Shown here: positions 583 through 48,624 of the stretch, one piece after another
Layout of the letters: each line of letters begins with the position of its first letter
How positions within the stretch are numbered: position 1 is the first letter of the stretch
DNA from: a candidate division TM6 bacterium GW2011_GWF2_32_72
GTDB taxonomy: Bacteria > Babelota > Babeliae > Babelales > CAIQNR01
Length of the DNA: 64,000 nt
NCBI GenBank assembly: GCA_945882015.1
Contig: CAMCVM010000002.1
Coordinates: 51,116-115,115 of the forward strand
Reading direction: 5' to 3'
Translations under genes and position numbers: made by a program
Notes under the pieces: model-generated
Databases searched by the model: none
What the model saw: the letters and a program-made list of their open reading frames with translations, nothing else
What the model was told of the DNA's origin: nothing

Positions 583-592
583 AGGAACTGTT

Positions 593-2872: not shown

Positions 2873-2886
2873 ATAAGGATTTATTC

Positions 2887-10395: not shown

Positions 10396-10400
10396 AAAAC

Positions 10401-11858: not shown

Positions 11859-11876
11859 TTAAAAAAAGGATTGATA

Positions 11877-17629: not shown

Positions 17630-19174
17630 TTATTTATAAAGTAGTCGCTTATAAAGATCTACCACTGCTTCAATTGGCATTTTTTCAAGATCTTTCAAGG
17701 AAATCTTCTGTCGATCAAGCCGACGTCGCCACAGTACAAGGTCGTTATCCTGAGAAAGGGTAAACAGTGTTTTGCCGTCTTCTGAAAATACTGTACACTT
17801 TAGTGGGTCGTTAAGACCGACTGAATGGTGGCAATGAGTACACACTCCTGTCTGAACATCAGTTAATACAAACGCTCCCGACAGGAAAGAATTAATTAAT
17901 TGCTTTGCGTCTGGTGAAAATAGTAAAAAATATGAATCAGCAGACCTGCTGAAAGATTTAATAAACTCTTTTTTTTGATGATCCCATAACTCAACATTAC
18001 CATTTTCAAAAGCAATTGCTAAAAGTTCTCCATCACGAGATAAAGCAAAGTTCTTTACAGGTTCAGGTAGCATCAAATCACCGATAAATTGACTGTTTTG
18101 AGTATTCCATAAACTGATTTTAAAAAAACTATCTCGTGCCGCTACTAAGCATTTGGCAGGAGAAAAACAAATTTTATGATCACAAGTAACCGGTATAAAA
18201 AAATCGCTTACTCTTTTTGCTTCTTTGATGTCCCATATTGTTACTTGATTCCTGATAGAAGAAGTTACAACCCTTTCATCATCTACAAAATAAAAGACAC
18301 TTACTGGGGCATTATGGGGGAGTAGTACGTCAGGAGTGATTGATCCTGATTCGATTTCCCATAACTGCGCTTCATACTTGTTTGAAATTACTCCAAGTAG
18401 TCGCCCATTTGGAGAAAGTCTCATCGAATTTATGACCGAAGCATCCTTAGGATCCATGTAAACTTTTGCTCTATCAGATGGAGCTGCACAGTCTACAAGT
18501 GGGGCAGCAAAATCTTCTTTATTTTTTAAGACTTTAACTTCTCCATCGACTAAAACAACTATAATAGAGCTTCCATCAGGATTAGAGGCGATCGATTGAA
18601 CCTGTAATTGTTCCATCTTAGTCCTAGACCATCCTGCCGCCCAGCTATATAAATCTTCTGTTAGACGTTTTTTTAATAGTGGATTTTGGTTAATTGCTTT
18701 ATATGTTTCTTGATCTATTTCTTTTTCTATCTGCTGAGTAAACCTTTCAGCTAATTCATTATAAATAAGATTTAGTGATGAAAACGATTCCCCCCTCCAT
18801 GTCTGTGGTTTAATAATACAATATGCTGCTGTATTATACCAAAGTACTAAATTTCTTAAGTCCATATTATTTAATCTTTCTGGAAAACCTTCAGGATTTT
18901 GCGAAAACTTTGCTAATTCTTCTAATGCTAATCCATGAACTTTAGAACTAGGCAGTTCAATTGGGTTTTGATTATTAACAGAAGAACGTGAAGCTAAAGA
19001 AAAATCAAGCCGCTCAAAATGTTTTGCCGATACTCGAGGTAATCTGATTTCTTTTCCCCCTACATACACGGCAAGGAATTCCTCTTCTAATGATTCATTT
19101 TCTGCTGTATACAAAGCGAAAGTCCAAAAGAAAAATACAAACCCAGTGCGTACCATATGATTGATTGATTGCAT
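17630..19174 (-). CDS. WD40/beta-propeller protein with N-terminal hydrophobic leader and about 200-aa N-domain
   Basis: Leader VRTGFVFFFWTFALYTA. The C-terminal half has repeated propeller-blade endings (QVTIWDI, KISLWNT, NVELWDH, DLVLWRR). Confidence 0.65.
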   Translation of the reverse strand: MQSINHMVRTGFVFFFWTFALYTAENESLEEEFLAVYVGGKEIRLPRVSAKHFERLDFSLASRSSVNNQNPIELPSSKVHGLALEELAKFSQNPEGFPERLNNMDLRNLVLWYNTAAYCIIKPQTWRGESFSSLNLIYNELAERFTQQIEKEIDQETYKAINQNPLLKKRLTEDLYSWAAGWSRTKMEQLQVQSIASNPDGSSIIVVLVDGEVKVLKNKEDFAAPLVDCAAPSDRAKVYMDPKDASVINSMRLSPNGRLLGVISNKYEAQLWEIESGSITPDVLLPHNAPVSVFYFVDDERVVTSSIRNQVTIWDIKEAKRVSDFFIPVTCDHKICFSPAKCLVAARDSFFKISLWNTQNSQFIGDLMLPEPVKNFALSRDGELLAIAFENGNVELWDHQKKEFIKSFSRSADSYFLLFSPDAKQLINSFLSGAFVLTDVQTGVCTHCHHSVGLNDPLKCTVFSEDGKTLFTLSQDNDLVLWRRRLDRQKISLKDLEKMPIEAVVDLYKRLLYK

Positions 19175-25222: not shown

Positions 25223-26212
25223 ATGGCAACTTCTATTTTTGATCAAAATGTAATAGAGCAGATAAAAGAAAAAAGCGCACTTTTTCATCTTTTAGCAAGC
25301 GAAGTTTCAAAGGTGATTGTTGGACAACATGATATTGTTACATTTTGTCAGTTAGCTATTTTGTGTCAAGGACATATTCTTTTAGAAGGTGTTCCTGGAG
25401 TTGCAAAAACAACCCTGATTAAAGCCCTTAACAGAGCTCTTGGTTTAGATTTTTCTCGTATTCAATTTACCCCAGACTTATTGCCCGCTGATTTAATTGG
25501 AACTCTTATCTATAACCCGAACAAACAAACATTTGAAACAAGAAAAGGGCCTATTTTTGCTCATCTTGTTTTGGCTGATGAAATTAATCGCACACCTGCA
25601 AAAGTTCAGGCTGCTTTGCTTGAAGCGATGCAAGAGCGCCAAGTGACTATTGGGTCAACTACCTATGAACTTGAGCAGCCATTTTTAGTATTTGCAACAC
25701 AAAACCCTATTGAGCAAGAAGGTACTTATAGACTTCCAGAAGCGCAAGTTGATCGATTCTTGTTTAAACTTTTGGTACATTATCCAAACAAACAACAAGA
25801 ACTTGAACTGTTACACAAAAAAATTGTTTTAGATTCAATTAAACAAGTCCTGCAAAAAGATATTATTTTTCAAGCGCAAAAGCTTGTTGAACAAGTTTAT
25901 GTTGATGAAAAAATTAAAAATTACATTGTTGATTTAGTATTTGCAACACGAGAACCTGCTCAGTATAAATTAGCATCTATTGCTCCGTTTTTGTTGTATG
26001 GGGTTTCGCCTCGAGCAACCCTTGCGATCCATCAGGCAGCAAAAGCGTATGCTTTTTTAAAACATCGCCACTTTGTAATTCCTGACGATGTTAAAGCAGT
26101 TGTGCCTGCAATATTACGTCATAGAATTTTGTTAACGTATCAAGCAGAAGCACAAGAAATTTCTGCTGATTCTGTAATTGAAACTCTTTTAGCAACAGTT
26201 GCAGCCCCTTAA
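25223..26212 (+). CDS. MoxR-family AAA+ ATPase
   Basis: GHILLEGVPGVAKTTLIKALNRALGLDFSRIQFTPDLLPADLIGT, LADEINRTPAKVQAALLEAMQERQVT, VFATQNPIEQEGTYRLPEAQVDRF. Confidence 0.85.
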   Translation: MATSIFDQNVIEQIKEKSALFHLLASEVSKVIVGQHDIVTFCQLAILCQGHILLEGVPGVAKTTLIKALNRALGLDFSRIQFTPDLLPADLIGTLIYNPNKQTFETRKGPIFAHLVLADEINRTPAKVQAALLEAMQERQVTIGSTTYELEQPFLVFATQNPIEQEGTYRLPEAQVDRFLFKLLVHYPNKQQELELLHKKIVLDSIKQVLQKDIIFQAQKLVEQVYVDEKIKNYIVDLVFATREPAQYKLASIAPFLLYGVSPRATLAIHQAAKAYAFLKHRHFVIPDDVKAVVPAILRHRILLTYQAEAQEISADSVIETLLATVAAP

Positions 26213-26264: not shown

Positions 26265-26294
26265 TTGACAAGGTAAAGACAACAAAGGTATCGT
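26265..26294 (+). promoter_or_regulatory. candidate sigma70-type promoter of the secretin operon
   Basis: TTGACA (26265-26270), an 18-nt spacer, then TATCGT (26289-26294). This would place the transcription start near 26301, ahead of the SD aaggaa and ATG 26325. Confidence 0.3.
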
Positions 26295-26324
26295 GTTTCA
26301 ATGATTATTCAAAAGGAACTCTCT

Positions 26325-27440
26325 ATGCGCCATCCGCTATGGTTAGTTGACAGCACATTCCTTATTCTGTTTTTAGCTGCGGCAATATTTGTTTTTTTTT
26401 CGCAGCAAAAACTCCCTAAACGGATTACTTTACAATCAGAAACGATAAAGACTGCTCCTGTAAAAACTGCACCTTCAATTGATATTACTCAAATTTATGA
26501 AAACGATTTATTCAACACGTATCAAAAAACAGTGCAACCAATTTCACAACCAGATTACTCTCACCCAATGCCACAAGTTCCAACTCAAAGCACTGTAAGC
26601 GCTCCTGAACAAAAAAACCAACCTTTATTAGAGCCATTGAATATAAAACTTAAAGGGGTGATCGTTTTAAATGATGCAAGCAATAATATTGCAATTATTG
26701 CTGACACAAAAAGCTCGGAACAAAAAAATTATAAAGTTGGTGACCTTATAGAAGATGCACAATTAATTCGCATCTTATCCAATCGCATTATTTTAATCCG
26801 TTCAAACGGACAGCAAGAAGTTCTTTACCTTAACGAAAAAGATATTGAAAAATCCCCACTTGTACAAAGCGAAAAAGCTCATTGGGCGACTGTTGTCAAA
26901 AAAATACACGACGAACTCTTTTTGTTAGATCCTGAAATGTTCTGTCTTGTGGTACGCAATATTGCGCAATTAATTGATCTGCTTGACCTTACCACTTTAT
27001 ATCAATCTGGAAAAAGTATAGGGTGTCGCGTAGGCAATATCATGCCTGACTCATTAGGCGCCGCAATGGGAATTGAGCCGTTTGATGTGGTTACTTTAAT
27101 CGACACTCTACCAGTTAATGAAACTGAACAACGCCATACTGTTTATCAAAAACTATTAGAAAAAAAAGAAGGGCAAACGGTTGTTATAGAACTTCTGAGA
27201 AATAACGCTCCGCTTACTTTTACCTATCAATTGCATGACTTAAAAGACCCATTTGATGACACGTTACATGCTATGCAAAAAACAGAAAAGTTAGAAGGTA
27301 TTACTGATCAATCTTATACTCAAGACATACAAGAAGAACGTTTGAATCTTTTAAGAGAAAAATATAAATTTGCTCCAACAGCACAGGAAATAAAAATTCA
27401 ACAAAAAACCACTATGCTTAAAGAAGGAAAACAACAATGA
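26325..27440 (+). CDS. GspC-like protein (TM anchor + HR-like domain + PDZ-like domain); track ORF starts at 26301
   Basis: ATG 26325 is preceded by aaaaggaa. TM helix LWLVDSTFLILFLAAAIFVFF. HR/PilP-like beta segment LNIKLKGVIVLNDASNNIAIIADTKSSEQKNYKVGDLIEDAQLIRILSNRIILIRSNGQQEVLYL. PDZ-like segment GCRVGNIMPDSLGAAMGIEPFDVVTLID. Confidence 0.6.
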   Translation: MRHPLWLVDSTFLILFLAAAIFVFFSQQKLPKRITLQSETIKTAPVKTAPSIDITQIYENDLFNTYQKTVQPISQPDYSHPMPQVPTQSTVSAPEQKNQPLLEPLNIKLKGVIVLNDASNNIAIIADTKSSEQKNYKVGDLIEDAQLIRILSNRIILIRSNGQQEVLYLNEKDIEKSPLVQSEKAHWATVVKKIHDELFLLDPEMFCLVVRNIAQLIDLLDLTTLYQSGKSIGCRVGNIMPDSLGAAMGIEPFDVVTLIDTLPVNETEQRHTVYQKLLEKKEGQTVVIELLRNNAPLTFTYQLHDLKDPFDDTLHAMQKTEKLEGITDQSYTQDIQEERLNLLREKYKFAPTAQEIKIQQKTTMLKEGKQQ

Positions 27441-29821
27441 ACGCTAAACACTTGTTCGTCTTTTGTTCTTTCTTTCTTACCTTCTTATACAATCTTAAAG
27501 CTGACAATAGCCGAACTATTTTAAGTAACCTTCCTGGAAATATTGCTGCAAAAGATTTTGCTTTGCCTGCCGCTCCAGAAGAAAGAAAGCCGCTTGTTCT
27601 TGTTGACCCTGAAGACACAAAAGAGCAAGAGTTGCCGGTGGTTAACAAACCAACTCCTGCTGAAAAAAAAGAGCCGCTTGCAAAAAAAGAAGCTCATAAA
27701 AAACTGGTAGAAGAAGAGCAAAAATTTAGATTTTATTTTGAAGATGCAACACTTGCAAATGTGGTTGCGTATATTGAAACTCTTTTTAAAGTAACATTTT
27801 TACCTGATGATGCAATCACCCCGTTAATTGCAGGAGCGCTTCCGTTAAATGGCCATAAGATAACCTTTAAAACAAATAAACCGCTTTCTCGGCAAGAAGC
27901 TTGGGGAGTCTTTTTAAAGCTGCTTGACTTGGCCGGGCTTACCATTGTGCCAGGACCTACGCCACAATTTTATCGAATTACTTCTGTAACTGGAGCAAAT
28001 CAAGAACCGCTTCCCACCTACTTTGACACTCATTTAAAAGATATCCCTGATAATGCAGCAAAAATTCGATATATTTATTTTGTAAAAAATAATTCCCTTA
28101 CAACTATTCAAAATCTTGTAACAGCTTTAGCTAGTCAAACTGCAAAAATTCTTACTTTTCCTGATCTTAATGCGTTGATTATTATAGACAAAGGAAATAA
28201 TGTTCGATCGCTCATGAATATTATACAAGAACTTGATAAAGATACCCCAGAAGCAATGTCTGTTTTAAAGCTTAAAAAAACTGATGCAACAAAAGTTGCA
28301 GCGTTATATGGGTCTTTAATACAAACAGGGAGCGGACCAGGAGCTGCTCGCTCTGCCCAACAAAGAAAACAACCAGGGAATCTCTATTTTTCTACCGATG
28401 CCAGAATTATACCAGAACCTCGCACAAATCGGTTAATTCTGCTCGGACCCAAGAAAGATTTAGCAAAAATTGAAAATTTTATTATTAAACATATTGATAC
28501 AGATCTTGATATGCCGTATTCCCCTTTACATGTTTATCGGCTAGGAAATACCGATGCTGCAAACATTACTGCTATTTTACAGAAAGTAATTGGATTCGGA
28601 TCTTCAACCATAGCAGGAACTGTGGGCGGAACCCGTGACGGTCAAAAGTTCTTTAAATCAGGCAGTATTACTATTGTTCCAGAACCAGTAGGCAACTGGC
28701 TTATTATCCGAGCAGAAGACGATGATTTTGAAAAATTAGTAGAAATTATTAAGGTGCTTGATGTTGAACAGCCTCAAGTTTCTATTGAAGTGCTTATTGT
28801 TGATGTAGAGTCAACCAATAAAAAAGAATTAAGCGCTCAAATACGCAATAAATCTGATAGTTCATTAATTAAAAACACTAATTTTCAAAGCGCTCAGATA
28901 GGAGCTCCTCAAACAAACGCTGCTGATGGCTCACTGATTACAAACCTTATTTCTCTTGCAACAGGGGCTGCTAATGGAGCGGGAACAACTCTTTTAAGTA
29001 TTGGTGGAGCAGCTTCAGGAGGAGTTTGGGGAATATTTAAAATCTTAAAAACATATACTAATGCAAAAGTTGTTGAAAACCCTTTCTTGGTTGCAACTAA
29101 TAAATACCAAGCTTCGTTTGTTTATGGCAAAACTAGACGAGTATTGATGGCAACCGTTGGAGACGGCGGGCAAAGCTTTGGAGACAAATCTGCTTTACTT
29201 ACCCTAAAAGTTACGCCTCAAATTAATAGCGATGGGTTAATCACCATGACGATTGACTTAACCATTCAAGATTTTACGAATGAATCTTCCGAAAGCGCTA
29301 ATACAACTAATAATCAAATTACTACTTCGGTACAAATTAAAGACCAAGACGTATTAGCATTAGGCGGTATTGTTAAAAATAAAATTTCAACAATTGTAAC
29401 TAAGGTTCCTTTGTTAGGAGACATTCCACTTATTGGAAACCTGTTTAGAGGTAAAACAAAAGAACATATTGTTAGCAACTTGATGATCTTTCTTTCTCCG
29501 CGAATTATCATACCTTCAAAAAATTATCATGTTGAGCAATATACACATAATAAAACTGAAGAAATCAGAGAAACGCTGTCAACCATAACAACCGGAACAG
29601 CATCTCGTGATCCTGTTGATAAAATGTTCTTTGAATATGTAAATGAAAATGATTATCAAGCAACCTTTGATGATTTTATGGAACCTGAAATGAGCGATGC
29701 CCCTGAAAGAAAAAGAAATTCAAAAGGAACGCTAAAAGACCGTAAGAAAGAAAACAAAGAACGATCAGGTCAAAAAACTTCTAGCCAAAAGCGACTTGCA
29801 AGCAAAAGGAAGCAAAGATGA
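27437..29821 (+). CDS. gspD: GspD-type secretin 1 (794 aa)
   Basis: N0-like FRFYFEDATLANVVAYIETLF. Three secretin_N-like repeats (LNALIIIDKGNNVRSLMNIIQELD, RTNRLILLGPKKDLAKIENFI, GNWLIIRAEDDDFEKLVEIIKVLD). C-terminal signature VPLLGDIPLIGNLFRGKTK...LMIFLSPRII. The start overlaps the gspC-like stop by 4 nt. Confidence 0.85.
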   Translation: MNAKHLFVFCSFFLTFLYNLKADNSRTILSNLPGNIAAKDFALPAAPEERKPLVLVDPEDTKEQELPVVNKPTPAEKKEPLAKKEAHKKLVEEEQKFRFYFEDATLANVVAYIETLFKVTFLPDDAITPLIAGALPLNGHKITFKTNKPLSRQEAWGVFLKLLDLAGLTIVPGPTPQFYRITSVTGANQEPLPTYFDTHLKDIPDNAAKIRYIYFVKNNSLTTIQNLVTALASQTAKILTFPDLNALIIIDKGNNVRSLMNIIQELDKDTPEAMSVLKLKKTDATKVAALYGSLIQTGSGPGAARSAQQRKQPGNLYFSTDARIIPEPRTNRLILLGPKKDLAKIENFIIKHIDTDLDMPYSPLHVYRLGNTDAANITAILQKVIGFGSSTIAGTVGGTRDGQKFFKSGSITIVPEPVGNWLIIRAEDDDFEKLVEIIKVLDVEQPQVSIEVLIVDVESTNKKELSAQIRNKSDSSLIKNTNFQSAQIGAPQTNAADGSLITNLISLATGAANGAGTTLLSIGGAASGGVWGIFKILKTYTNAKVVENPFLVATNKYQASFVYGKTRRVLMATVGDGGQSFGDKSALLTLKVTPQINSDGLITMTIDLTIQDFTNESSESANTTNNQITTSVQIKDQDVLALGGIVKNKISTIVTKVPLLGDIPLIGNLFRGKTKEHIVSNLMIFLSPRIIIPSKNYHVEQYTHNKTEEIRETLSTITTGTASRDPVDKMFFEYVNENDYQATFDDFMEPEMSDAPERKRNSKGTLKDRKKENKERSGQKTSSQKRLASKRKQR

Positions 29822-31299
29822 TAAGAAACTTACTCACCCTTTTTGCGCCAGAACAACTACAGGGCAATTATTTAATCCCAACAACAGTGGTCAGTATTGT
29901 GATTGAGCATAACAAGCTCGTTGCAACGGTTGTTTTACTTAAAGGCACACAGGTCTTTATTCAAAAAATAATAACCGAGCCGCTTGAAGAAACTAAAACT
30001 ACCCTTTCTTTAAAAATTACTCAGGCATTAACAGCCCTTATTAAAAAAGTTGGACATTACGATAAAGTCATTACGTGCTTGCCCAGCAGCCTTGTCATGT
30101 TTAAACCGTTTTCATTTCCCTTTATCGACCCTGATAAAATTAAAATGGTACTTGGATATGAATTAGAAGGGCAGCTTCCGTTTTCAACACAAGATGCTTG
30201 TATCGATTTTATTATTACTCAAGAGCATATTGACCCTATAAAAGCAGACGTTATTATTGCTGCTGCCCAAAAAAAATTAATTGAAGAGTTTCTTAAGCCT
30301 TTTCATGATGCGGGCATAGCTGTTGCAAATCTTAGCGTCGATACTATTGGACTTTACAACTTGATTATGCGCAAGAAGGAAACGATTTCTTTAGCTAACA
30401 CGGTTATTATTGATTTACAGCATGACACAACTAAGCTACTTTTTTTTACTCACAACCAATTACGATACATTAGGACTTTGCGCTCTGGGTTAACAGTAAA
30501 AACAGATGAATTATGGCCAGCTTTAAACTTTACCCTTCAATCATGCATTAATGAACAAGCGGCGCAAGAACCATTAAAAATTATTCTGATTGATGCTCAT
30601 CAAGGTACGCAACTTGCTGCAATACAAGGCAATATTGAGTTACCTTCTGAAATTATAACTCTAGAAAAGCTTCTACAAGACAAAATCAATACACAAGGGT
30701 TAGTTAAAGTTGAATCTTTAAACTCATTGGCTATTGCTATCCCCTTTGAAAAAGGCCACAACTTTAGCTTACAAGAAACTATTACTCCTGAACAAAAACG
30801 ACTCATTGATTATCAAACCATTACAGCGCTGTTTTTTTCAATCAGTACAGTACTGCTTTTAGGAACGCATACCTTTTTACAAATTCGAAAACTTTCAAAT
30901 GAATTGACTGCTTCCCAAACCGAAGTTATGAACATTATTAAAGAAAACTTTCCTACTATTACGGCAAGAAACCGCCAAGATGCACTTAATTTTGCTGCCA
31001 AAGAAGTTCAAAATGAAGGAAAAATCTGGTCATCATTTGCATCAGAAACTCGTAAGTCATTTTTAGAATATTTTTATGATTTAAGTACAAAAATTGACAG
31101 AGAAACATTAGGGCTTAATTTAAAAAAGATGTTGATTAATAAAAATACCATCACCCTTGAAGGCAACGTAAGAAGCTTTGAAGCAGTAGAACAATTTGAA
31201 GCTCAATTGAAAGAAACAAAGCTCTTTAGCAATGTTCCTGATCTACAAAAAGTAGAGTTTTCAGTTGTTCTTCCTCTTGATAGCCAAGGAGTTCTTTAA
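29818..31299 (+). CDS. PilM-like / PilN-like fusion protein (GspL-like topology)
   Basis: The N-half resembles PilM (LPSSLVMFKPFSFPFIDPDKIKMVLGYELEGQLPFSTQDACIDFII; AAAQKKLIEEFLKPFHDAGIAVANLSVDTIGLYNL). One TM helix (ITALFFSISTVLLLGTHTFLQI). A periplasmic tail of about 135 aa follows. The start overlaps the upstream stop by 4 nt. Confidence 0.55.
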   Translation: MIRNLLTLFAPEQLQGNYLIPTTVVSIVIEHNKLVATVVLLKGTQVFIQKIITEPLEETKTTLSLKITQALTALIKKVGHYDKVITCLPSSLVMFKPFSFPFIDPDKIKMVLGYELEGQLPFSTQDACIDFIITQEHIDPIKADVIIAAAQKKLIEEFLKPFHDAGIAVANLSVDTIGLYNLIMRKKETISLANTVIIDLQHDTTKLLFFTHNQLRYIRTLRSGLTVKTDELWPALNFTLQSCINEQAAQEPLKIILIDAHQGTQLAAIQGNIELPSEIITLEKLLQDKINTQGLVKVESLNSLAIAIPFEKGHNFSLQETITPEQKRLIDYQTITALFFSISTVLLLGTHTFLQIRKLSNELTASQTEVMNIIKENFPTITARNRQDALNFAAKEVQNEGKIWSSFASETRKSFLEYFYDLSTKIDRETLGLNLKKMLINKNTITLEGNVRSFEAVEQFEAQLKETKLFSNVPDLQKVEFSVVLPLDSQGVL

Positions 31300-31301
31300 T
31301 T

Positions 31302-31862
31302 ATGACTTTACTCAACCAATTACAACAGATTTTTCTTACCCAGGACATTAAAGAATTTTACAAAAGAATCGGTCTTTACGCTGGAGTTATTGTTTTTTTA
31401 ATAGTTGGAACGCTCTATTATTACTACACCAGAACAAGCGATTTACATGCTGCTTTAAAAAAGGTTAATAAAGACAGACAAGAAGTACAACATCTACTGA
31501 AAAAATACAAAAGAGTCCTTGAGCAAAAAGAGGCCGTTAACACAATGCTTGAAGAAGAAAAAAACTTTAAGATACAAAGCTTTTTTGATAGCGTAGTGCA
31601 GCAACATCAACTCAAGGGCCAACAAAAACAAGATGCGCAGGTATCTGAAGAAGTATTATACAAACGATACACAGAAATAAAGCTAACCGCACAATTTAAA
31701 CAAATTAATACCCAAGAACTCTCTGAATTATTACGTTCTATAGAAGAAAAAAAACGAGTCTATATTAAAGATTTAGCAATCACTAAAACAAAAGGCGCTG
31801 CACTGGATATTTCATTAACAATTGCTACGCTTAAATCACAAAGCGAAACAAAAGCTCGATAA
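31302..31862 (+). CDS. bitopic PilO/GspM-like protein (186 aa)
   Basis: Single N-terminal TM helix (IGLYAGVIVFLIVGTLYYYY), then a coiled coil and a small C-terminal domain. The assignment rests on size, topology and operon position only. Confidence 0.4.
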   Translation: MTLLNQLQQIFLTQDIKEFYKRIGLYAGVIVFLIVGTLYYYYTRTSDLHAALKKVNKDRQEVQHLLKKYKRVLEQKEAVNTMLEEEKNFKIQSFFDSVVQQHQLKGQQKQDAQVSEEVLYKRYTEIKLTAQFKQINTQELSELLRSIEEKKRVYIKDLAITKTKGAALDISLTIATLKSQSETKAR

Positions 31863-31873
31863 AAAGGTTTATC

Positions 31874-34414
31874 ATGATTAAAAATTTATTTTTTCTTCTT
31901 TTAATAGGTACAACCTTTCATGCTCAAACAGATCAAAAGCAGACGCAAACAGAAACTAAAAAGGTCTGGTTTCGTTACAAAGAAGAACCGCTGATCAATA
32001 TCGTTAACGACCTTGCTGCGCAACGCAATGTAAATATTATGCCTCCTCAAGGAGCTGCCGCCTTAACTTCAAAAGTGACTTTTGAAGTTTCTCATAAAAT
32101 TTCTCTTGAACGAGCATGGCAATATATGATTACTATGCTCGATATTGCTGGATTTGCTATTGTTCCTAATACTCCGCTCAGTTTTATTGTCAAAAAAGAC
32201 CAGTCAGTTCATAAAGAAATTTTACCACTCTATATTGATGTTGCTCCACAAAATTTACCTGAAACCGATTTAACTATTCGTTATTTGCGATATTTAACTA
32301 ATCTACAAGTTCCAAATAGTACTGATGGAGCAAGTTCACCCCTTTCAATGCTCCTTTCTCAATTGCTTTCACCAGGGGCTTCTATTATTTACGAACCGCA
32401 ACTGAATGCTGTGTTAATCACTGATTCTGCACGCACCATTAAATCTGTGATGACTATTATTGATGAGTTGTCTGCTTGCATGCCGTTACAGAAACCTGCC
32501 TTTATCACCTTGAAACACACAACCGCCAGCCAAGTAAAAACGCTATTTGATCAACTGATTCCTGGACAAGCAACTAATGCTGCTCCTGCTGGGGCACAAG
32601 CTCAAATAGGAGCAAACAATTCTTCTTACTTTGCAAGAGGGACCAAGATAGTAGCTGACAATGCACACAATGTATTAATCTTACTAGGCAAACAAGAAGA
32701 CATAGACAAAATTGATGATTTTATTAAACAGTATATCGATCTTCCGCCAGAAAAAGGCCGCTCAATCTTACATTTTTACGATCTACAACACCTTGATTCT
32801 GTCTCTTTTGCTCCTGTTTTAACACAAATTGTGCAAGAACAAAGCTCTAGCCAAGCAGCGGGAGGATACGATGGTTATGGCTCAGGGACGGATCAATCAA
32901 CAAGTTCAAACGAAACCAGTATCTATAAAAAATTTCAAGGGGTTATTATTACCTCAGAAGGTTCTGTTACCGGAACAGGGGACTCTGGAAGTTCTTTAAC
33001 AGGAGGCTCACAGACAGGTAATCGTTTAATTATAGCTGCACTCAAAGACGATTGGATAAGAATAGAGGCGCTTATTAAAGAGCTTGATAAACCACAACTA
33101 CAAGTAGTCATTCATGGACTTATTGTTGATCTTTCTTACACAGGTCTTAAAAACTTTTCCCATCAAATTAGAAATGCTCAAAATCTTTTTCTAAAAAATG
33201 TAAATTGGCAAACAGGACATCTTGGTGGAATTGAAAATGGGACTACTTCAAGCAGCACAATCCCAACCGATGCTGCTGCGTTAAGAACAAACTTATTACC
33301 TCTCACGAGCACCAACAGCGCTGGCAATATGGCTAATAATGCTGAAAAGGGGACCTTTATTTTGTCATTTAAAGATGCCGCTTCTAATGGTATTTTTTTA
33401 ATTTCAAGCATGCTTAATCAGCAAACCGATAGTAAAATTTTATCTCGTCCTTTTTTAACTACCATGAATAATAAAGAGGTCTATTTTAAAGATTCAGAAA
33501 ACCGAAGAATTGATGGATCTGCTTCAGGACTTTCTGGAGTGCAAGTAGTTAACCAAGAAGATGTAGAAGCGAGCATCGATTTAAAAATATTGCCTCGCAT
33601 CAATCAAAACGGAATCATTAATTTAAGTATCACCATTAATGTTAATGAATTTGAAACCACAGGAAGTAGTACTCGAACAAATCGTACTCTTGTTACTAAT
33701 GTAAATCTTTATGATAAAGATATCCTAGTGCTTGGCGGATTAACTAAAACAAAATTAGAATACACTTGCAATAAAACTCCTCTATTGGGAGATATTCCAC
33801 TTCTTGGTAATCTTTTTAGGGGAAAATCAAAAACGGTAACCAAAAGCCATTTAATGATATTCTTGCGCCCAGAAATTATCAAACCTGATGACAAAAAAAT
33901 TACTCATCGTTTTTTCAATCAAGCACAAACTATTTTAGAGCAAGGCGAAGATAATTTCAGTACCCTAAAAGATCCTGTTTCTCGATGGTTTTTTGGAGCA
34001 GACCCAAAAGGAACAAGTGCAAAAGTTATTGAAGATTTTCAAGGCGAAACTGAATCAGTCACGCAACATATTGAATTATTACACCGCAATAAAATTGCAA
34101 TGCCGGAAGAAACTGATCAAGATACGTTTAGGGTAAAACAGAGCGTTAACGATCAAAATGAGACAAAAGAACCGTTTGCACTTGAACAACCAAACCTTGA
34201 AAAGCCTTCTTTAAGAACTCCAATTGACGTTGAAACACAAGAAAAAAATGCACAAAAAGAACTCAAACGTCTTTTTGCATTAGAAGATGAAGTTGTTCAA
34301 AAAAAAGAAAAAGTGCAAAAAGTTCAAGAAGAAATACAAGCAGAAGAAAGCCTTAAAGCACTTTTTCAAGATCCAGGACTTAGTAAAGTAATGACTGAAG
34401 AAGAAGATCTTTAG
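31874..34414 (+). CDS. GspD-type secretin 2 (846 aa)
   Basis: Signal peptide. N0-like WFRYKEEPLINIVNDLAAQRNVNI. Secretin_N-like repeats (LNAVLITDSARTIKSVMTIIDELS, HNVLILLGKQEDIDKIDDFI, GNRLIIAALKDDWIRIEALIKELD). Signature TPLLGDIPLLGNLFRGKSK...LMIFLRPEII. A charged C-terminal extension of about 170 aa follows. Confidence 0.85.
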   Translation: MIKNLFFLLLIGTTFHAQTDQKQTQTETKKVWFRYKEEPLINIVNDLAAQRNVNIMPPQGAAALTSKVTFEVSHKISLERAWQYMITMLDIAGFAIVPNTPLSFIVKKDQSVHKEILPLYIDVAPQNLPETDLTIRYLRYLTNLQVPNSTDGASSPLSMLLSQLLSPGASIIYEPQLNAVLITDSARTIKSVMTIIDELSACMPLQKPAFITLKHTTASQVKTLFDQLIPGQATNAAPAGAQAQIGANNSSYFARGTKIVADNAHNVLILLGKQEDIDKIDDFIKQYIDLPPEKGRSILHFYDLQHLDSVSFAPVLTQIVQEQSSSQAAGGYDGYGSGTDQSTSSNETSIYKKFQGVIITSEGSVTGTGDSGSSLTGGSQTGNRLIIAALKDDWIRIEALIKELDKPQLQVVIHGLIVDLSYTGLKNFSHQIRNAQNLFLKNVNWQTGHLGGIENGTTSSSTIPTDAAALRTNLLPLTSTNSAGNMANNAEKGTFILSFKDAASNGIFLISSMLNQQTDSKILSRPFLTTMNNKEVYFKDSENRRIDGSASGLSGVQVVNQEDVEASIDLKILPRINQNGIINLSITINVNEFETTGSSTRTNRTLVTNVNLYDKDILVLGGLTKTKLEYTCNKTPLLGDIPLLGNLFRGKSKTVTKSHLMIFLRPEIIKPDDKKITHRFFNQAQTILEQGEDNFSTLKDPVSRWFFGADPKGTSAKVIEDFQGETESVTQHIELLHRNKIAMPEETDQDTFRVKQSVNDQNETKEPFALEQPNLEKPSLRTPIDVETQEKNAQKELKRLFALEDEVVQKKEKVQKVQEEIQAEESLKALFQDPGLSKVMTEEEDL

Positions 34415-34468
34415 ATCCTCACGCTACGCCCATGTTCGGCGTAGCTAAAAGCAAAGACGGATCAGGAT
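34415..34468. other. GC-rich nested hairpin between convergent genes
   Basis: The inner perfect 8-bp stem pairs GCTACGCC (34423-34430) with GGCGTAGC (34438-34445) around a 7-nt loop. The outer pair is atcct (34415-34419) with aggat (34464-34468). No U-tract follows on either strand. Confidence 0.4.
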
Positions 34469-37708: not shown

Positions 37709-39598
37709 TTAAAATATGTAATCAACTGACAAGCTTAAGGTAAAAGCTGTACTTGTCCCCAAGGTTGGAAGAATTTCTTCTGTTCCTGCTGTAGCTTGTT
37801 CAACAAGCTTAGCTATATCAGTGCTTAAAGCAGTTCCTTTAGAATCAGTGTAGTATTTGCCTGGTATAAAGATCGCTGCGGCTAAACTGAATTTTAAATT
37901 ATCACTAAATTCATATTTGTTGATCATGTTAAACTCTGTGCCTAATTTTTTACTTGCGTCAACAGTTGGCTCTGCTATTTTTTTTGAGGGAAAGTGTTGC
38001 CAATAAGTCAAAATATTCGGATTAATACTAAATTTATGATTCCAATCTTTTGGAGCAAAATTAAATCCCATTCCTGCAAAGATTAAATTGGTAAAACTAT
38101 CAATCCCCGAACCATCAAGCCGCCCTTCTTGCAACGGTTTTAAACGAACAAGCCCAGCTGCTGGCCCCATAACAAAAACACTTTTAACTCTATTTCCAGA
38201 CCACAATTCTTGTTGCGTTACAAAACCTTTATAGCTTCTAAGACTGGTTGCTTGGTTTCCTGTGCGAGAATTTGGATTAGTATCTCCACTTGAAATCCCC
38301 CCCGCAACAGATGCTTTTAAATCTCTTTTGTAAACATAGATTGAAGCATCAGCAACTGCCATGTAGCCTCTATATTTGTTTTTGTAAGCATCTCTGAATC
38401 GATCTTTACCATGGTATTTAGTAGTTCCATCAATCAACTGACTATTTAATGCACTTGAAAGCATTGCTGTTGGTCTATATGCAGTTGTATCTCCAGTATA
38501 AACCGTCTTGGTTGTTAATGCTGCGTCATCAAAAACATGTGACCAATGTTGAATTAAGGCCCCTGTAGTTGTGTCTGTTTTTGTTTTAACAACGTTTCGA
38601 TCAAATGCAAAAACTTCCTGTTGCCCGCGATTAAATGCAGTATCAAAACCAAACTCAACAATACCATGCTCAAACTCCCCCGATAAACCAAATGTTTTTA
38701 AAGTGCTTGCGGCATCAGAAGTAAATTCGATTGTTTGTGATGGGTCTTTTGCATACATTGCATAGGGTTCAAAGAAAACTTTTTTATGCGCTGCTTTGTC
38801 TTCAACGGGAGTCCAACGCAATCTTCCTGCAACTTTCCAGTCAATATCTCCAAACCCTCTGGCAAACTGTGTGTTTGGAATATATTTTCCTGCAACAATC
38901 AAGTGGTCATAAATTTGCGCACCAGTCTTTTTAAATGATGTTGCATTGTTTTCTGTAACAGAAGCATATAAATCATATTTTAAAGCATCCCAATAAAGAT
39001 TACCTGAAAGCTTTGCTCCTGGCGCATATTGATCTACCGCACTGTCAGTATAAAAACCTAATGAAGAAGGAGCGATCGCATAATTTTCACCTAATGCAAT
39101 ACCACGACCCAAATCAAAAGGGAAAAGACCAACCGTAAACGAATGTTTCCATGTATCAAGCCCTAAAAGATCATCAAAATCAAACTTAAACCATACTTCT
39201 TGAACATAGAGGTTGTTGCGCCCCAACTCATGGGAATGATCTCCAATAAGGGTTTCTCCATACTTAATTGAGCTAGACTTAGTAGAAGTTTTTGCTGAAC
39301 CCCATGTTAAAGGAACGTTAAAAGTAACCTGTGCCTTAACGCCTTTTTTATGCTCTACTGCTGTAGTAAAATTTATTTTAGTCTTATTGGCAAGAGCTTT
39401 ATCAACCTTATCCCCGCGTGCACCAACAGCAGAGCCGTTTAATAAAAATGCATTAACAGAAAAATCTGTGCCTTGTGAAATTTTCCCACCGAGTGAAACT
39501 TCGATATCTTCATTTTTATAAATTGAAACTTTTGCTTGTACCGGCATAGCCGCCAAAAGGGCAAGTGGAAGAAGCAAAGCTGCTTTTGGATTTTTCAT
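37709..39598 (-). CDS. outer-membrane beta-barrel (porin-like) protein
   Basis: Signal peptide MKNPKAALLLPLALLAAMPVQA. Alternating beta-strand pattern with frequent aromatic girdle residues. The C-terminal SLSVDYIF ends in Phe, matching the OMP beta-signal. Confidence 0.6.
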   Translation of the reverse strand: MKNPKAALLLPLALLAAMPVQAKVSIYKNEDIEVSLGGKISQGTDFSVNAFLLNGSAVGARGDKVDKALANKTKINFTTAVEHKKGVKAQVTFNVPLTWGSAKTSTKSSSIKYGETLIGDHSHELGRNNLYVQEVWFKFDFDDLLGLDTWKHSFTVGLFPFDLGRGIALGENYAIAPSSLGFYTDSAVDQYAPGAKLSGNLYWDALKYDLYASVTENNATSFKKTGAQIYDHLIVAGKYIPNTQFARGFGDIDWKVAGRLRWTPVEDKAAHKKVFFEPYAMYAKDPSQTIEFTSDAASTLKTFGLSGEFEHGIVEFGFDTAFNRGQQEVFAFDRNVVKTKTDTTTGALIQHWSHVFDDAALTTKTVYTGDTTAYRPTAMLSSALNSQLIDGTTKYHGKDRFRDAYKNKYRGYMAVADASIYVYKRDLKASVAGGISSGDTNPNSRTGNQATSLRSYKGFVTQQELWSGNRVKSVFVMGPAAGLVRLKPLQEGRLDGSGIDSFTNLIFAGMGFNFAPKDWNHKFSINPNILTYWQHFPSKKIAEPTVDASKKLGTEFNMINKYEFSDNLKFSLAAAIFIPGKYYTDSKGTALSTDIAKLVEQATAGTEEILPTLGTSTAFTLSLSVDYIF

Positions 39599-44746: not shown

Positions 44747-46078
44747 TTATATTGCAAGAAATTGTTGAATTACCGTAAGCCAGTCGGTATAGATAGAAAA
44801 CTGTGATTTTTTATAGGATTTATGCAATACATGTTCTGGAAAATAAATAGAAACTCCCTTTGCTTTATCAAATAAGCTCCCTACTTTATTTGCAACAACC
44901 ATTGTTTTTATAAGCTCAAGGCCTTCAGCTAAAACCTCTGAAATTCTTTTTTTAAAAGATGAATTTTCTGGAGAATTTAGGAGTGCAACATGCGCAACAT
45001 TGCGCAACAAGTTTCTTAAGAAGTTGTCTAGATCAATATAGTCAGGTTCATCAAAGTGTATGCAATGATGGCTATACCTACTTTTGCGCAACAATTGTGC
45101 AACAGTTTCTGGATTATTTGAAAGTCCTTTATGCAACAGAAAAGCCAGTTCTTTGATGTTGCTTTCTAGTTTTTGTGCAACAGAAAGGTCAAGGCATGAC
45201 AACGTGTAATCATTTGCAAAATGGTAAGTCTTTGCATATGCGTTTACAATGTGTTTTGCAAATTCTAGAGGCGTGGGCGCTTTTGTTTCGAACAGAGAGA
45301 GTGCTTTTTTGTAGTTCCATCCAGTTCCTCGTTCAACTTCTTGAGAGGCAACCATCAAATGAGCGTAATTTTTTGCAATATACATTACTTCGACCATTGC
45401 CATTAAGCAGGTATCAAAGCCTATCAGGTCTAATTTATTGTTATTCAGCCCTTGCTTACAAATCATTTTAAGAGCAAAATCAAGATCTCTTTCTTTTAAA
45501 AAATTCCCTGTTGCTTCGTCAAAACAGACCCCTTTTTGTATTGATTTTTTATCAACGATTTCAAAATTTGAAAAAAGAGGAAGATATAAAGGGCTTTCTG
45601 GCAAACTATAATCAAATTCAAAAATTTCAGAGACAGTAAGCGTTCTACCAGTTGAAGGATCAAGTGGTCCAGTTCCATGATTCCAGAAGATAAGGGCATA
45701 ATGATCGGCAGGAAACTGCGCAATAGTATTGTTGCAAAATTGAATCAGGGTTTTTGGGTCTCCGCTGTCAGCAAGCTTGCTGTTATTAATTGTTTTTATA
45801 AGTAGTTGATGATCTTTTTCTATTTTTATAATTTTTGCATAATTTTCTCGGCTTGCGTGATGTTCTTGAGCAAGAAAAATAATAAGGTTCAATTGTTCAT
45901 TTGAACCAATACGCATCATTTGTTTGATATTTTCAATGGCAAAAATATCAAGATCATTATTTGCAGCCATATAAACCATCACAGTCCATTTTGCTTGAGC
46001 TGCTGACTGGAAAGAATAAGACATGATGCAAAGCAGAGCAATTAAATAATTTTTATGGAACATATAATTATAAAACAA
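44747..46078 (-). CDS. clostripain-like (peptidase C11) cysteine protease, secreted (paralogue A)
   Basis: Signal peptide ...LLCIMSYSFQSAAQA. C11 landmarks WTVMVYMAANNDLD, HYALIFWNHGTG (catalytic His) and IGFDTCLMAMVEV (catalytic Cys). Confidence 0.75.
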   Translation of the reverse strand: MFYNYMFHKNYLIALLCIMSYSFQSAAQAKWTVMVYMAANNDLDIFAIENIKQMMRIGSNEQLNLIIFLAQEHHASRENYAKIIKIEKDHQLLIKTINNSKLADSGDPKTLIQFCNNTIAQFPADHYALIFWNHGTGPLDPSTGRTLTVSEIFEFDYSLPESPLYLPLFSNFEIVDKKSIQKGVCFDEATGNFLKERDLDFALKMICKQGLNNNKLDLIGFDTCLMAMVEVMYIAKNYAHLMVASQEVERGTGWNYKKALSLFETKAPTPLEFAKHIVNAYAKTYHFANDYTLSCLDLSVAQKLESNIKELAFLLHKGLSNNPETVAQLLRKSRYSHHCIHFDEPDYIDLDNFLRNLLRNVAHVALLNSPENSSFKKRISEVLAEGLELIKTMVVANKVGSLFDKAKGVSIYFPEHVLHKSYKKSQFSIYTDWLTVIQQFLAI

Positions 46079-47468
46079 GTTTAAGCAAATTTACCCAACT
46101 TGTATTTTTCGCAAAAGTAGTTTGTAAATACGACCCATCAATAGAACGTAGTGGGAAGTAGATGGCAAGCCCCTTTGCTTTTTGTAAGTTTGCGCCCGTT
46201 TGATTTGCAATCACCGCTTTAGTAATTAATTTAATTCCTTCTTGCAGTAAGTCTTTTACATGATTTTTTAAATAGGCATGCGAATCAGTAAGATGCATAA
46301 AATCAATCGCTTCAAATAGATTTGAATAAAAATGATGAAGGTCTATGTAAGTAGGTTCTGCAAAGCAAGTACAAGCTCTTTTTGCGCGACTTGCTTTAAT
46401 CGATCGTTTTACTGAAAAATCAAGTTCATGGTGGATCATTTCAATAAGGGTTGAGCTTACTTTTGTAATATTTTTTTCAAGAGCTTCTATGCGCGAAAGG
46501 TCAATAGCTGATTGTGTAAAATCTTTGGTAACGTGTTCATATCCTTGCGCGTAGCCAATAACAATTTGTTGCGCAAATTCATAAGGGGTTAAGGTTTGCG
46601 TTGCAAAAGGGGCTAGTATCAGATTATACGGATAGCCCGTTCCGAGTTCAACTTCTTCAGAAGCGGCCATGTAATCAGTATAAGGACTAATTAAATGAGC
46701 GACTTCAACCATGGCCATTAAGCAAGCGTCAAACGCTATGATATCAAATTTTTTATGTAAAATTTTCTCACAAACAGTTTTTAGGGCGTAATCAAGTTTT
46801 TGGTTGGTTAAATATGATCCATAGGTGTCACTAAAGCATACACCGCGAGAAATTAAATCAGTATTTTTATGTTCAAGAAAATCAAGGAAGTTAATTGAAC
46901 GGTCAAGCTCCAACATATGATTTGCGGGATTAAAAGTAAAAAGTTCAGAAGCGTTAGTTGTTTTGGTTGGAATAGAATCTAAGATCCCAGTTCCGTGGTT
47001 CCATAGTACTAATGCATAATGATGAGCAGGGTATTGTGTAATTGCCCATTGACAACAATCAATAAGTGTTTGAGGACTTCCAAAATTAAGTTTTTGTTGT
47101 GACGAACTGTCGTCGACATTCACTTGATAGACTACTTCTTTGGTCACATAGAGTCGCTTGGTATACTGATGCGCTCCATATCTATCCAGCTGGACAACAA
47201 TTGAAATGTTTTCATTAGATCCTACTTTGCTCATTGCTTTAATATTATGATACGCAAAATAATCAAGGTCATTGTCGGCTGCTAAGTAAACAATAAAAGT
47301 CCAATCAGATTTAATTGGTTTTCTTTTGGCAAGTTCTGTTTGAGATATTTCAATGGTGTCAATTAAGAAGGGGTGCTCTAATGAATGTTCAGAGCGAATT
47401 CCTACAAAAAAAGTAAAGAGAAATAAAAAACTGCACAATTTTTTTGAAAGTATTTTGAAATAGAACAT
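46068..47468 (-). CDS. clostripain-like (peptidase C11) cysteine protease, secreted (paralogue B); track ORF extends to 47498
   Basis: ATG 47466-47468 has an AAGGAG SD 5 nt upstream. Leader MFYFKILSKKLCSFLFLFTFFVG. Landmarks WTFIVYLAADNDLD, HYALVLWNHGTG and IAFDACLMAMVEV. Confidence 0.75.
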   Translation of the reverse strand: MFYFKILSKKLCSFLFLFTFFVGIRSEHSLEHPFLIDTIEISQTELAKRKPIKSDWTFIVYLAADNDLDYFAYHNIKAMSKVGSNENISIVVQLDRYGAHQYTKRLYVTKEVVYQVNVDDSSSQQKLNFGSPQTLIDCCQWAITQYPAHHYALVLWNHGTGILDSIPTKTTNASELFTFNPANHMLELDRSINFLDFLEHKNTDLISRGVCFSDTYGSYLTNQKLDYALKTVCEKILHKKFDIIAFDACLMAMVEVAHLISPYTDYMAASEEVELGTGYPYNLILAPFATQTLTPYEFAQQIVIGYAQGYEHVTKDFTQSAIDLSRIEALEKNITKVSSTLIEMIHHELDFSVKRSIKASRAKRACTCFAEPTYIDLHHFYSNLFEAIDFMHLTDSHAYLKNHVKDLLQEGIKLITKAVIANQTGANLQKAKGLAIYFPLRSIDGSYLQTTFAKNTSWVNLLKLVL

Positions 47469-47529
47469 AGCAGCTCCTTTTTTGCTTAAGTATGTCAAAA
47501 TACTAATTTTTTTTTTAACAATTAAGCAA

Positions 47530-48624
47530 TTAAAAGGAGTTCGAAATTCTTTTTTTTCGATCTAGATAAGAAATCCAAGCAAGGCAAAAGGTGAGGAAAA
47601 AGCTTAATTGAAAATCTAAGAAAAAGAGTTGAAAGGGGTTGCAAAGCAAGACAAGGCAACAAACAAGACAAATCAAATGAACCGCATTTACTTGTAAATC
47701 AAAAAGGTTACAAAATTTATAAAATAGAAAGAGCAGGAAAGCTCTAATAAAAGAAATGCTTGGCGGGGTTAAAAGATAGTAAACACAGCACAGCAATGTC
47801 ATGCAAAGAGTTTTGAGTGTAAAATGAAAAGGCAGCAAAGAAATTAAAAAATGCCATGCAAGAATAAACAATACTAAATGCAAGCCAGATCGAGCTAGGT
47901 GATGGGATATCCCCCATGTTTGAAATGGTATTTTATATTTCTCTATCGTTCTTTTTACTCTGCTTTTGTCTCCCATAAATAAAGAACTAAAAAAGGCAAA
48001 AGCTTTAAAAGACATCTTTTTTTTCAGCCCATTAAAAATTCGCTCTTTATGAAAATCAAGCCAACCATTGATTGAAAATTTTGTAGTAATTGTTTCTGGG
48101 ATGCACTGAAATTTAAAAGCGGTTCCAATAATTGCTTGTTTATAAAGGTATGATCGAAAAGCTTTATTATTTGATTTTTTAATTGCTAGGTCTTTACAAG
48201 TAATAGTGTCGCCGGCATTAAAAAGGGGATTTCTTTTGGTAAAAATAAAGAATGAAAAAGGGTTATCAGTTAAAGCTCTGCCGGTTATTCGATAAGGCCA
48301 ATTGTAGTTACCTGCTTGAGTAATATCAGTAACTTGGACAGTAGTAGTTAATTTCTGAGGAATAACAAAAGAATCGAGTCGATAAAAATGAACAGAATAG
48401 GATAAGTATCCTAATAAAAAAGCAAAAATCGCTAAATTTAAAGATATTTTTTTTATGCAGTAAGCAATTAAGCTTAATAATAAAAAAGAACCGGCTATTA
48501 TGATATGCAATAATGGCTTTGAATCGATTAAAAAATCAGCAAAAACAATACCATTAAGCAAGAAAAAAGTCGCCTTAAGTAAAAGACTTTCAGGGGCTGG
48601 AATAAATTGTTTTAAAATAACCAT
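47530..48624 (-). CDS. short ComEC/Rec2-family membrane protein (364 aa)
   Basis: N-terminal TM helices, then an OB-like DUF4131-type segment, then the competence-domain motif WGISHHLARSGLHLVLF and further TM helices. No metallo-beta-lactamase domain is present. Confidence 0.55.
   Translation of the reverse strand: MVILKQFIPAPESLLLKATFFLLNGIVFADFLIDSKPLLHIIIAGSFLLLSLIAYCIKKISLNLAIFAFLLGYLSYSVHFYRLDSFVIPQKLTTTVQVTDITQAGNYNWPYRITGRALTDNPFSFFIFTKRNPLFNAGDTITCKDLAIKKSNNKAFRSYLYKQAIIGTAFKFQCIPETITTKFSINGWLDFHKERIFNGLKKKMSFKAFAFFSSLFMGDKSRVKRTIEKYKIPFQTWGISHHLARSGLHLVLFILAWHFLISLLPFHFTLKTLCMTLLCCVYYLLTPPSISFIRAFLLFLFYKFCNLFDLQVNAVHLICLVCCLVLLCNPFQLFFLDFQLSFFLTFCLAWISYLDRKKRISNSF

Follow-up and report, generated by a model that had tools for sequence, protein, structure and literature searches.

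How does a bacterium build a secretin machine from an operon that encodes two secretins and no motor, and what would the second secretin be for? These questions are raised by a stretch of 64,000 nucleotides (nt), called the window here, from a member of the Dependentiae (TM6, Babelota): positions 51,116-115,115 of the forward strand of contig CAMCVM010000002.1 (assembly GCA_945882015.1). Within it, five genes encode in order a GspC-like connector (C, ORF1), a GspD-type secretin (D1, ORF2), a GspL-like protein (L, ORF3), a protein of putative PilO/GspM fold (M, ORF4) and a second GspD-type secretin (D2, ORF5). [quoted passage not shown] Taken alone, the identity of the five parts is something of which we are highly confident. 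With moderate confidence, we further propose that D1 and D2 form two homo-oligomeric channels on one C-L-M scaffold, each with one pair of GspE- and GspF-type motor proteins and with their roles split. The affiliation with the Dependentiae is reflected in the ORF3 homologues and in related genome records, which are named 'Candidatus Babeliales' or 'Candidatus Babelota'; all copies of the block that were found are metagenome assemblies.

Five translationally coupled genes

The five open reading frames (ORFs; Table 1) share one strand and are packed closely. The stop and start codons overlap as ATGA at both the ORF1/ORF2 and the ORF2/ORF3 junctions, the ORF3/ORF4 junction reads TAA-tt-ATG (a 2-nt gap), and ORF4 and ORF5 are 11 nt apart; these features were read from the sequence, as was an AGGA-like motif 5' of all five starts. 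The genes form one tightly, translationally coupled unit. A preliminary description of this DNA had delimited the five co-directional ORFs and sketched their products; all five sets of coordinates proved exact, and the description of the products is supported by Pfam, NCBIfam, PDB and fold matches.

Table 1. Positions in the window of the operon genes and of features at the borders of the operon (aa, amino acids; TM, transmembrane)
Feature	Position	Strand	Basis
MoxR-type AAA+ ATPase gene	25223..26212	+	Pfam AAA_3 1.2e-64, AAA_lid_2, bpMoxR
Promoter-like site (TTGACA, 18 nt, TATCGT) just 5' of ORF1	26265..26294	+	Consensus match only
ORF1, GspC-like, 379 aa	26301..27440	+	Pfam, NCBIfam, PDB matches, TM scan
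ORF2, secretin D1, 794 aa	27437..29821	+	Pfam Secretin/Secretin_N, TIGR02517, PDB 5wq7
ORF3, 493 aa	29818..31299	+	Pfam, PDB profile search, AlphaFold model, Foldseek
ORF4, bitopic, 186 aa	31302..31862	+	AlphaFold model, Foldseek, weak sequence matches
ORF5, secretin D2, 846 aa	31874..34414	+	Pfam Secretin/Secretin_N, TIGR02517, PDB 5zdh, phylogeny
Perfect 8-bp hairpin (GCTACGCC, 7-nt loop, GGCGTAGC) separating the convergent genes for D2 and enolase	34423..34445		Read from sequence

Two GspD-type secretins from one old duplication

ORF2 and ORF5 both have the N0, N1-N3 and core domains by which a GspD is recognized. D1 consists of a signal peptide, a Pro/Glu/Lys-rich linker (residues ~23-98), N0 (~99-180), N1-N3, the secretin core (~446-693) and a 100-aa tail; D2 consists of a signal peptide, N0 (~30-107), N1-N3, the core (~406-672) and a 176-aa C-terminal tail. 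Each has three Secretin_N stretches and a strong Pfam Secretin match (6.2e-35 for D1, 2.7e-32 for D2), the best PDB matches are GspDs in both cases (5wq7, 3.2e-39, and 5zdh, 2.2e-28), and the core motifs KVPLLGDIPLIGNLFRGKTK and KTPLLGDIPLLGNLFRGKSK are found in the secretins. With the GspD model TIGR02517 the two score 270 and 253 bits, both under the equivalog cutoff of 351, which marks them as divergent members; scores with the PilQ model are far lower (145 and 114 bits), and those with the SctC and MshL models are also much lower. The preliminary description had assigned both secretins to the GspD type, with an N0 domain, three Secretin_N repeats and the core motif. The type, repeats and motif were recovered (Pfam, TIGR02517); the N0 domain stands on less even ground, being a partial, sub-threshold Pfam match in D1 (E 1.3e-4; 22 bits, where the cutoff is 27) and, in D2, visible only through alignment to D1, with no Pfam match of its own. 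A Pfam scan found no AMIN domain in either secretin, and there is no PilP ORF in the operon. Where a T2SS has one secretin per system, this operon has two full-length paralogues, and in place of the PilQ-type secretin and PilP lipoprotein of the type IVa pilus (T4aP) it has a GspC-like protein bearing the HR domain.

D1 and D2 are 32% identical over 712 aa (E 7e-91), an alignment that runs from N0 through N1-N3 and the core into the tail; identity in the core is ~33%. A secretin phylogeny against GspD and PilQ, which the preliminary description had suggested, was built by neighbour joining from 302 columns (N3 and secretin core) of seven D1 sequences, 18 D2 sequences and four proteobacterial GspDs taken from PDB alignments, with a single PilQ (V. 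cholerae) as root. D1 and D2 grouped together, apart from PilQ, in all 100 bootstrap replicates; support was 99 for D2, 80 for D1 and 100 for the proteobacterial GspDs, and in no replicate (0/100) did D1 or D2 group with the latter. This monophyly indicates that the duplication is older than the split of the sampled Dependentiae and that D2 is not a PilQ. On this tree, D2 is a lineage-specific GspD paralogue derived from one old duplication. The two copies have since evolved at different rates, with mean core identity among orthologues of 45.5% for D1 and 38.9% for the faster-evolving D2.

The secretins also differ in their less conserved parts. The N3 domain of D2 holds a Ser/Gly/Thr-rich low-complexity insertion of ~60 aa (residues 318-375; window 32825-32998, + strand) that is missing from D1. 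The tail of D1 (window 29516-29821) ends in a strongly basic segment of ~40 aa, with a net charge of +9 to +16 in five of six orthologues, and the tail of D2 (window 33887-34414) is longer (168-198 aa across orthologues) and variable in charge. The idea that a basic tail on D1 and an acidic one on D2 complement each other in charge was considered and rejected, as the charge of the D2 tail ranges from -14 to +13. A 'DPV...FF' motif occurs ~35-40 residues past the core in both window tails (RDPVDKMFF in D1, KDPVSRWFF in D2), and is also present in the D2 orthologue of one related locus (L007) and in both modules of the tandem secretin P0040 described below.

A scaffold of GspC-like, PilM-PilN-like and PilO/GspM-like proteins

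ORF1 has the make-up of a GspC, namely a bitopic inner-membrane protein with HR and PDZ domains. A TM helix (residues 15-33) is followed by the HR domain (~100-189), the PDZ domain (~241-316) and a C-terminal extension of ~65 aa. Pfam T2SSC (2.6e-10, 40.7 bits, cutoff 27) and PDZ_2 (6.6e-6) both match, and in the PDB residues 100-189 match GspC HR structures (7oio, 6hcg_e from PulC, and 2lnv) and residues 241-316 match the PDZ domain of DegQ. The deltaproteobacterial NCBIfam model GspC_delta aligns over nearly the full length (4.8e-22), yet the score, like those of all the NCBIfam GspC models, is below the cutoff.

ORF3 is built as a GspL in a single chain and is made of PilM-like and PilN-like parts. 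An actin-like cytoplasmic domain of PilM size (residues ~1-310) is joined through one TM helix (335-353) to a periplasmic PilN/GspL_C-like domain, in agreement with the preliminary description of two such halves linked by one TM helix. Pfam matches are to PilM_2 (5.6e-9), PilN (6e-4) and T2SSL (2.4e-3), and over 13 orthologues these families and GspL_C match 12 (PilM_2), seven (PilN), nine (T2SSL) and two (GspL_C) sequences; the PilM-like and PilN-like parts are in one chain in all 13. In a PDB profile search the match was M. xanthus PilM (1.6e-14). The AlphaFold model (predicted local distance difference test, pLDDT, 76.5) matches PilM (5eou, 2.5e-18), FtsA (~1e-11) and the cytoplasmic domain of GspL, which is shorter (4pht_Y, 2.6e-10), in Foldseek. 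The actin-like domain, single TM helix and periplasmic ferredoxin-like domain of GspL are therefore all present in build, while PilM is the better match; the T4aP arrangement, in which a separate PilM binds the N-terminus of a separate PilN, is replaced by a fused chain.

The AlphaFold model of ORF4 (pLDDT 76) has a TM helix (residues 23-41), a coiled-coil helix that extends to about residue 101, and then a repeated alpha-beta-beta domain (108-179). Its best Foldseek match is PilO (2rjz, 4.3e-4, probability 1.0), with 5uvr and 3jc8_O also matching, followed by PulM (5hl8) and EpsM (1uv7). Matches at the sequence level are weak and under cutoffs (GspM_XpsM 1.6e-3; T2SSM in seven of 16 orthologues), and the ORF4 alignment, when used for a PDB profile search, gave chance-level matches only, so that the assignment rests on the fold. 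The preliminary description would have been undermined had ORF3 and ORF4 lacked similarity to the PilM/N/O or GspL/M families; such similarity is clear for ORF3 and is found at the level of the fold for ORF4.

Conservation of the operon across the Dependentiae

The block MoxR-C-D1-L-M-D2, which includes a MoxR-type gene upstream of the operon, recurs in six divergent loci, namely the window itself and L002, L004, L006, L007 and L009. The order of the five genes in relatives, a further check that the preliminary description had proposed, is thus conserved in six loci, with identities of the five products to those of the window ranging from ~31% to 61%. Outer synteny differs in L002, where MoxR and the five genes are still together. 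No truncated copy of either secretin occurs among the six loci, both have signal peptides, and in several lineages D1 and D2 alike keep the full N0-to-core build and the PLLGDIP core motif. When 1.84 billion cluster representatives were searched with D2, 506 matched at E <=1e-30, and 149 of the best 150 were of the D2 type. This indicates that D2 represents a large maintained family and not a decaying copy.

A protein outside the window, P0040 (from a single JGI/IMG contig, 41,491 bases long), has 1491 aa and contains two complete D2-type secretin modules (~26-685 and 780-1440) joined by a Pro/Ala/Gln-rich linker, with a signal peptide at the N-terminus alone. It is known at the protein level, and a metagenome contig search for its locus gave only a 21%-identical relative. 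P0040 may be a natural fusion of two secretins, or else an artefact of read-through.

Probable dispersal of the motor and pilin genes

A Pfam scan that covered all ORFs of >=100 aa in the window revealed housekeeping genes to either side of the operon and none for GspE, GspF, a pilin or a prepilin peptidase, and a six-frame motif scan found neither a prepilin-type N-terminus nor a GspE-type Walker A motif. The absence of the E-to-K block, which the preliminary description had noted between D and the L-like gene, therefore extends to the whole 64 kb. GspE, GspF and pilin genes are likewise absent from the 10 kb past the 3' end of the window, and a standard arrangement with the remaining genes adjoining the operon, which would have spoken against the preliminary description, was found neither in the window nor in this 3' extension.

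Published genomes of relatives provide an indication of where the remainder may lie. The counts of clusters of orthologous groups (COGs) for Babela and TM6SC1 are, respectively, three and two for PulD, two and two for PulE/PilB, two and two for PulF, three and zero for PulG, two and zero for PilV, one and one for PilM, and zero in both for PilT (Pagnier et al. 2015, PMC4378268); PulO, the prepilin peptidase, is present in the Babela gene table. In that table a PulF gene stands alone between a COG1872 gene and yhhQ/tgt (genes 449-448). PulF orthologues were found in three further Dependentiae lineages (L012 9697-11164, L015 9678-11206, L018 3470-4969), and in all four a small COG1872/PF1765-like gene precedes PulF, with no ATPase, pilin or secretin neighbour. 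A stand-alone PulF gene in four lineages indicates that the machinery genes are scattered in this phylum. Extrapolating from the literature and related loci, we expect two GspE/PilB genes, two GspF genes (at least one of them stand-alone), a prepilin peptidase and pilins to be scattered elsewhere in the genome of the window, and PilT to be missing.

A cluster at L013 8141-17295 was examined as the missing half and set aside, as its GspF scores are level with those of Patescibacteria-named matches and it has no secretin. The cluster holds GspE-like and GspF-like genes, five small unannotated ORFs, a separate PilM and three more small ORFs, adjoins a cell-wall synthesis cluster and probably comes from Patescibacteria, outside the lineage of the window.

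Yeoh et al. (2015, PMC4776705) compared seven TM6 genomes, found two gspD genes and no pilQ in every one of them, and suggested that one gspD copy may replace pilQ, calling this an open question. The T2SS has been reported as the sole secretion system, with type IV pilus assembly genes elsewhere (PMC4776705; PMC4378268; Deeg et al. 2019, PMC6561590). The window agrees with the reported dual-gspD system in its lineage, in its two gspD genes and in having no pilQ-type gene. The presence in this phylum of two GspD-type secretins without PilQ has therefore been known since 2015; the preliminary description knew of no characterized system with this layout, which is correct. The C-D-L-M-D operon, the single scaffold, the fused PilM-N, the secretin paralogy and the MoxR neighbour are undescribed in the cited Dependentiae papers (PMC4776705, PMC4378268, PMC6561590). 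What is new is the coupled C-D-L-M-D layout, the fused PilM-N, the one scaffold for two secretins and the old in-lineage secretin paralogy.

Comparison with known secretin systems

The canonical T2SS of Proteobacteria (Gsp/Pul/Eps/Xcp) shares with the Dependentiae operon a GspC with TM, HR and PDZ segments, a GspD with N0-N3 and core, the bitopic build of GspL and a small bitopic partner of putative GspM fold, and the best PDB matches of both Dependentiae secretins are T2SS GspDs. It differs in that the Dependentiae operon has two secretins, the E-K genes are absent from the 64 kb, the L-equivalent has a full-size PilM-like domain, the M-equivalent is nearer to PilO, and all the products score under NCBIfam equivalog cutoffs. 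The PilM-N-O-P-Q set of T4aP (P. aeruginosa, M. xanthus, T. thermophilus) is resembled in the PilM match of the N-terminal part of ORF3, the PilN match of its C-terminal part, the PilO match of ORF4 and the position of a secretin after these genes. Unlike T4aP, the Dependentiae have PilM and PilN fused, a GspC-like HR-PDZ protein in place of the PilP lipoprotein and GspD-type secretins without AMIN, and PilT is absent in the relatives.

T2SS loci can be split, with xcpPQ of P. aeruginosa apart from xcpR-Z and the lsp genes of Legionella in several loci. Such loci have C and D, or L and M, apart from E-K, so that a motor-less locus is not in itself abnormal; they differ from the present operon in having one secretin per machine and no coupled operon of C, D, L, M and a second D. 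The T4P-like cluster Amuc_1098-1102 of Akkermansia is also compact and encodes a secretin and PilM-like and PilO-fold proteins. The NCBIfam models for Amuc_1098 and Amuc_1101 give partial matches, far under cutoffs, and Amuc_1100 structures match the ORF4 model, whereas the Akkermansia cluster has one secretin and no GspC-like gene.

A proposed single scaffold for two channels, and the alternatives

The best explanation of these observations is that this Dependentiae bacterium has a single T2SS/T4P-class machine with dispersed genes, of which the operon encodes the envelope-spanning half. By analogy with the T2SS and T4P, the L/M pair would act as an inner-membrane alignment complex that engages the GspE/PilB-GspF motor. 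The HR domain of GspC would contact the N0 domain of a secretin, as in the canonical T2SS, and the pilins assembled by the motor would, again by analogy, drive secretion or make a fibre. D1 and D2 would most likely be two separate homo-oligomeric outer-membrane channels docking on the same single C-L-M scaffold, with each channel served by one of two E/F pairs. One channel may export a large set of signal-peptide-bearing host-interaction proteins, and the other may have a pilus-like or uptake function, in keeping with the proposal of Yeoh et al. that a gspD stands in for pilQ (PMC4776705). We prefer two channels on one scaffold because D, E and F are present in at least two copies in relatives that have a single PilM-like gene.

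The preliminary description had offered three options: a minimal module that borrows an ATPase and pilin set encoded elsewhere, a hetero-oligomeric or dual-channel secretin system, and a T2SS C-D pair combined with a T4P MNO-Q set. The first is the best supported, as PulE, PulF and PilM are tabled in both relatives and PulF stands alone in four lineages; PulG and PilV are tabled for Babela only.

Several points weigh against this explanation. Channel formation by both secretins and the division of roles between them are features that we infer, and we know of no characterized precedent for two channels on one scaffold. The tree is a neighbour-joining tree with only four proteobacterial GspDs and one PilQ as root. 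The putative PilO/GspM fold of ORF4 is based on a model of moderate confidence and a Foldseek match of 4e-4. Whether the genome of the window has E, F and pilin genes, and in how many copies, is extrapolated from relatives. Finally, electron microscopy of Babela showed no pili (PMC4776705).

Of the alternatives, the one that survives best, which we nevertheless regard as unlikely, is that D1 and D2 co-assemble in one machine, as a mixed ring or as tethered or stacked rings over a single C-L-M platform. Such an arrangement would fit with two secretin genes that are strictly co-operonic and coupled beside a single gene each for C, L and M, with the persistence of this arrangement across the sampled phylum, and with a PilM that is single-copy in Babela and TM6SC1. 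A genuine P0040 fusion would force two secretin modules close together, but it joins D2-type to D2-type and not D1 to D2, and comes from a single contig. The core identity of ~33% suggests that the protomer interfaces have diverged, and the two E and two F genes of the relatives fit two machines. To our knowledge, characterized secretins are all homo-oligomers with one per machine, which also weighs against co-assembly. Were the single GspC/L/M scaffold nonetheless to serve co-translated D1 and D2 as a mixed ring or twin-channel complex, of which we are doubtful, it would be the first natural hetero-secretin machine known to us, and P0040 would be a fused version of the same principle.

A division in which one secretin is the working channel and the other an accessory (a scaffold, a pilotin-like helper or a regulator) seems improbable. 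The faster evolution of D2 (38.9% against 45.5%), its low-complexity N3 insertion and its long variable tail could be read in this way, and the operon has no evident pilotin gene; against this, both proteins retain the N0-to-core build, PLLGDIP and signal peptides, neither is truncated in the six loci, and D2 belongs to a very large maintained family.

Least likely, and very improbable in our view, is a chimera of T2SS gspC-gspD with T4P pilM/N-pilO-pilQ, the third option above: ORF3 is nearer to PilM than to GspL (Foldseek 2.5e-18 against ~1e-10; PDB profile 1.6e-14), the best fold match of ORF4 is PilO and GspC is a T2SS-type component, so that the resemblance of ORF3 and ORF4 to PilM/N/O stands, but D2 is GspD-type (253 bits against 114 for PilQ), has N0 and three N domains and no AMIN, groups with D1 in 100/100 bootstraps and with proteobacterial GspDs in 0/100, a PilP gene is lacking, the PilM and PilN parts form one chain as in GspL, and the homology of GspL/M with PilM/N/O means that T4P-side resemblance in a deep lineage needs no chimera. 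In terms of its families, as judged from these matches, the module does appear to be a hybrid.

Whichever arrangement applies, the Dependentiae are widespread obligate protist parasites with very small genomes, and the operon is therefore probably central to the delivery of their many host-interaction proteins with signal peptides. Two old secretin paralogues in one coupled operon with a single scaffold offer a natural test of whether one platform can serve two channels, or of whether there are mixed secretin rings. The fused PilM-PilN and its PilO-like partner, standing beside GspC and GspD-type secretins, bear on how the alignment complexes of the T2SS and T4P came to differ. Babela, Vermiphilus and Chromulinavorax have hosts that can be cultured, which makes the question accessible to cryo-electron tomography and proteomics.

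Genomic neighbourhood

The MoxR-type gene lies directly upstream of ORF1, separated by an 88-nt gap and not translationally coupled to it, and is directly upstream of the GspC-like gene in 6/6 loci, including the one with changed outer synteny (L002). No VWA partner gene is evident near it. The MoxR gene may have a link with how the machine is assembled, or its position may simply reflect conserved synteny. A role as a stand-in motor was rejected, since MoxR/AAA_3 proteins are chaperone-type and not of the GspE/PilB class, and the 88-nt spacer contains a promoter-like site. Promoter-like sites are rarer in this region than in its shuffles, which leaves the match at 26265..26294 as weak evidence of a promoter. 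At the other end, the hairpin at 34423-34445 may mark the end of the operon; it was not called by the terminator scan because it has no T run. Further upstream neighbours, beyond MoxR, are dCTP deaminase and then MlaE/F and triosephosphate isomerase; downstream are enolase and AspRS, then IF2, NusA and others.

Elsewhere in the window, a 364-aa ORF (47530-48624, - strand) contains a ComEC/Rec2 'Competence' domain (PF03772, 7.9e-23). Because the genome also encodes a pilus-like machine and a spare secretin, this DNA-uptake channel hints that one secretin channel might serve in taking up DNA. Two tandem paralogous genes of the clostripain family (Peptidase_C11; 443 and 476 aa) are found at 44747-47498 (- strand). 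Three WD40 beta-propeller genes are adjacent to one another, with a fourth nearby (9214-13007, + strand; 17630-19174, - strand), and just upstream of them are two very large ORFs of 781 and 1681 aa without Pfam matches (527-7932, + strand). An ORF of ~630 aa, also without a Pfam match, lies between AspRS and an AP endonuclease-family gene (37709-39598, - strand), and its position is kept in four of the loci examined (the window, L004, L006 and L009).

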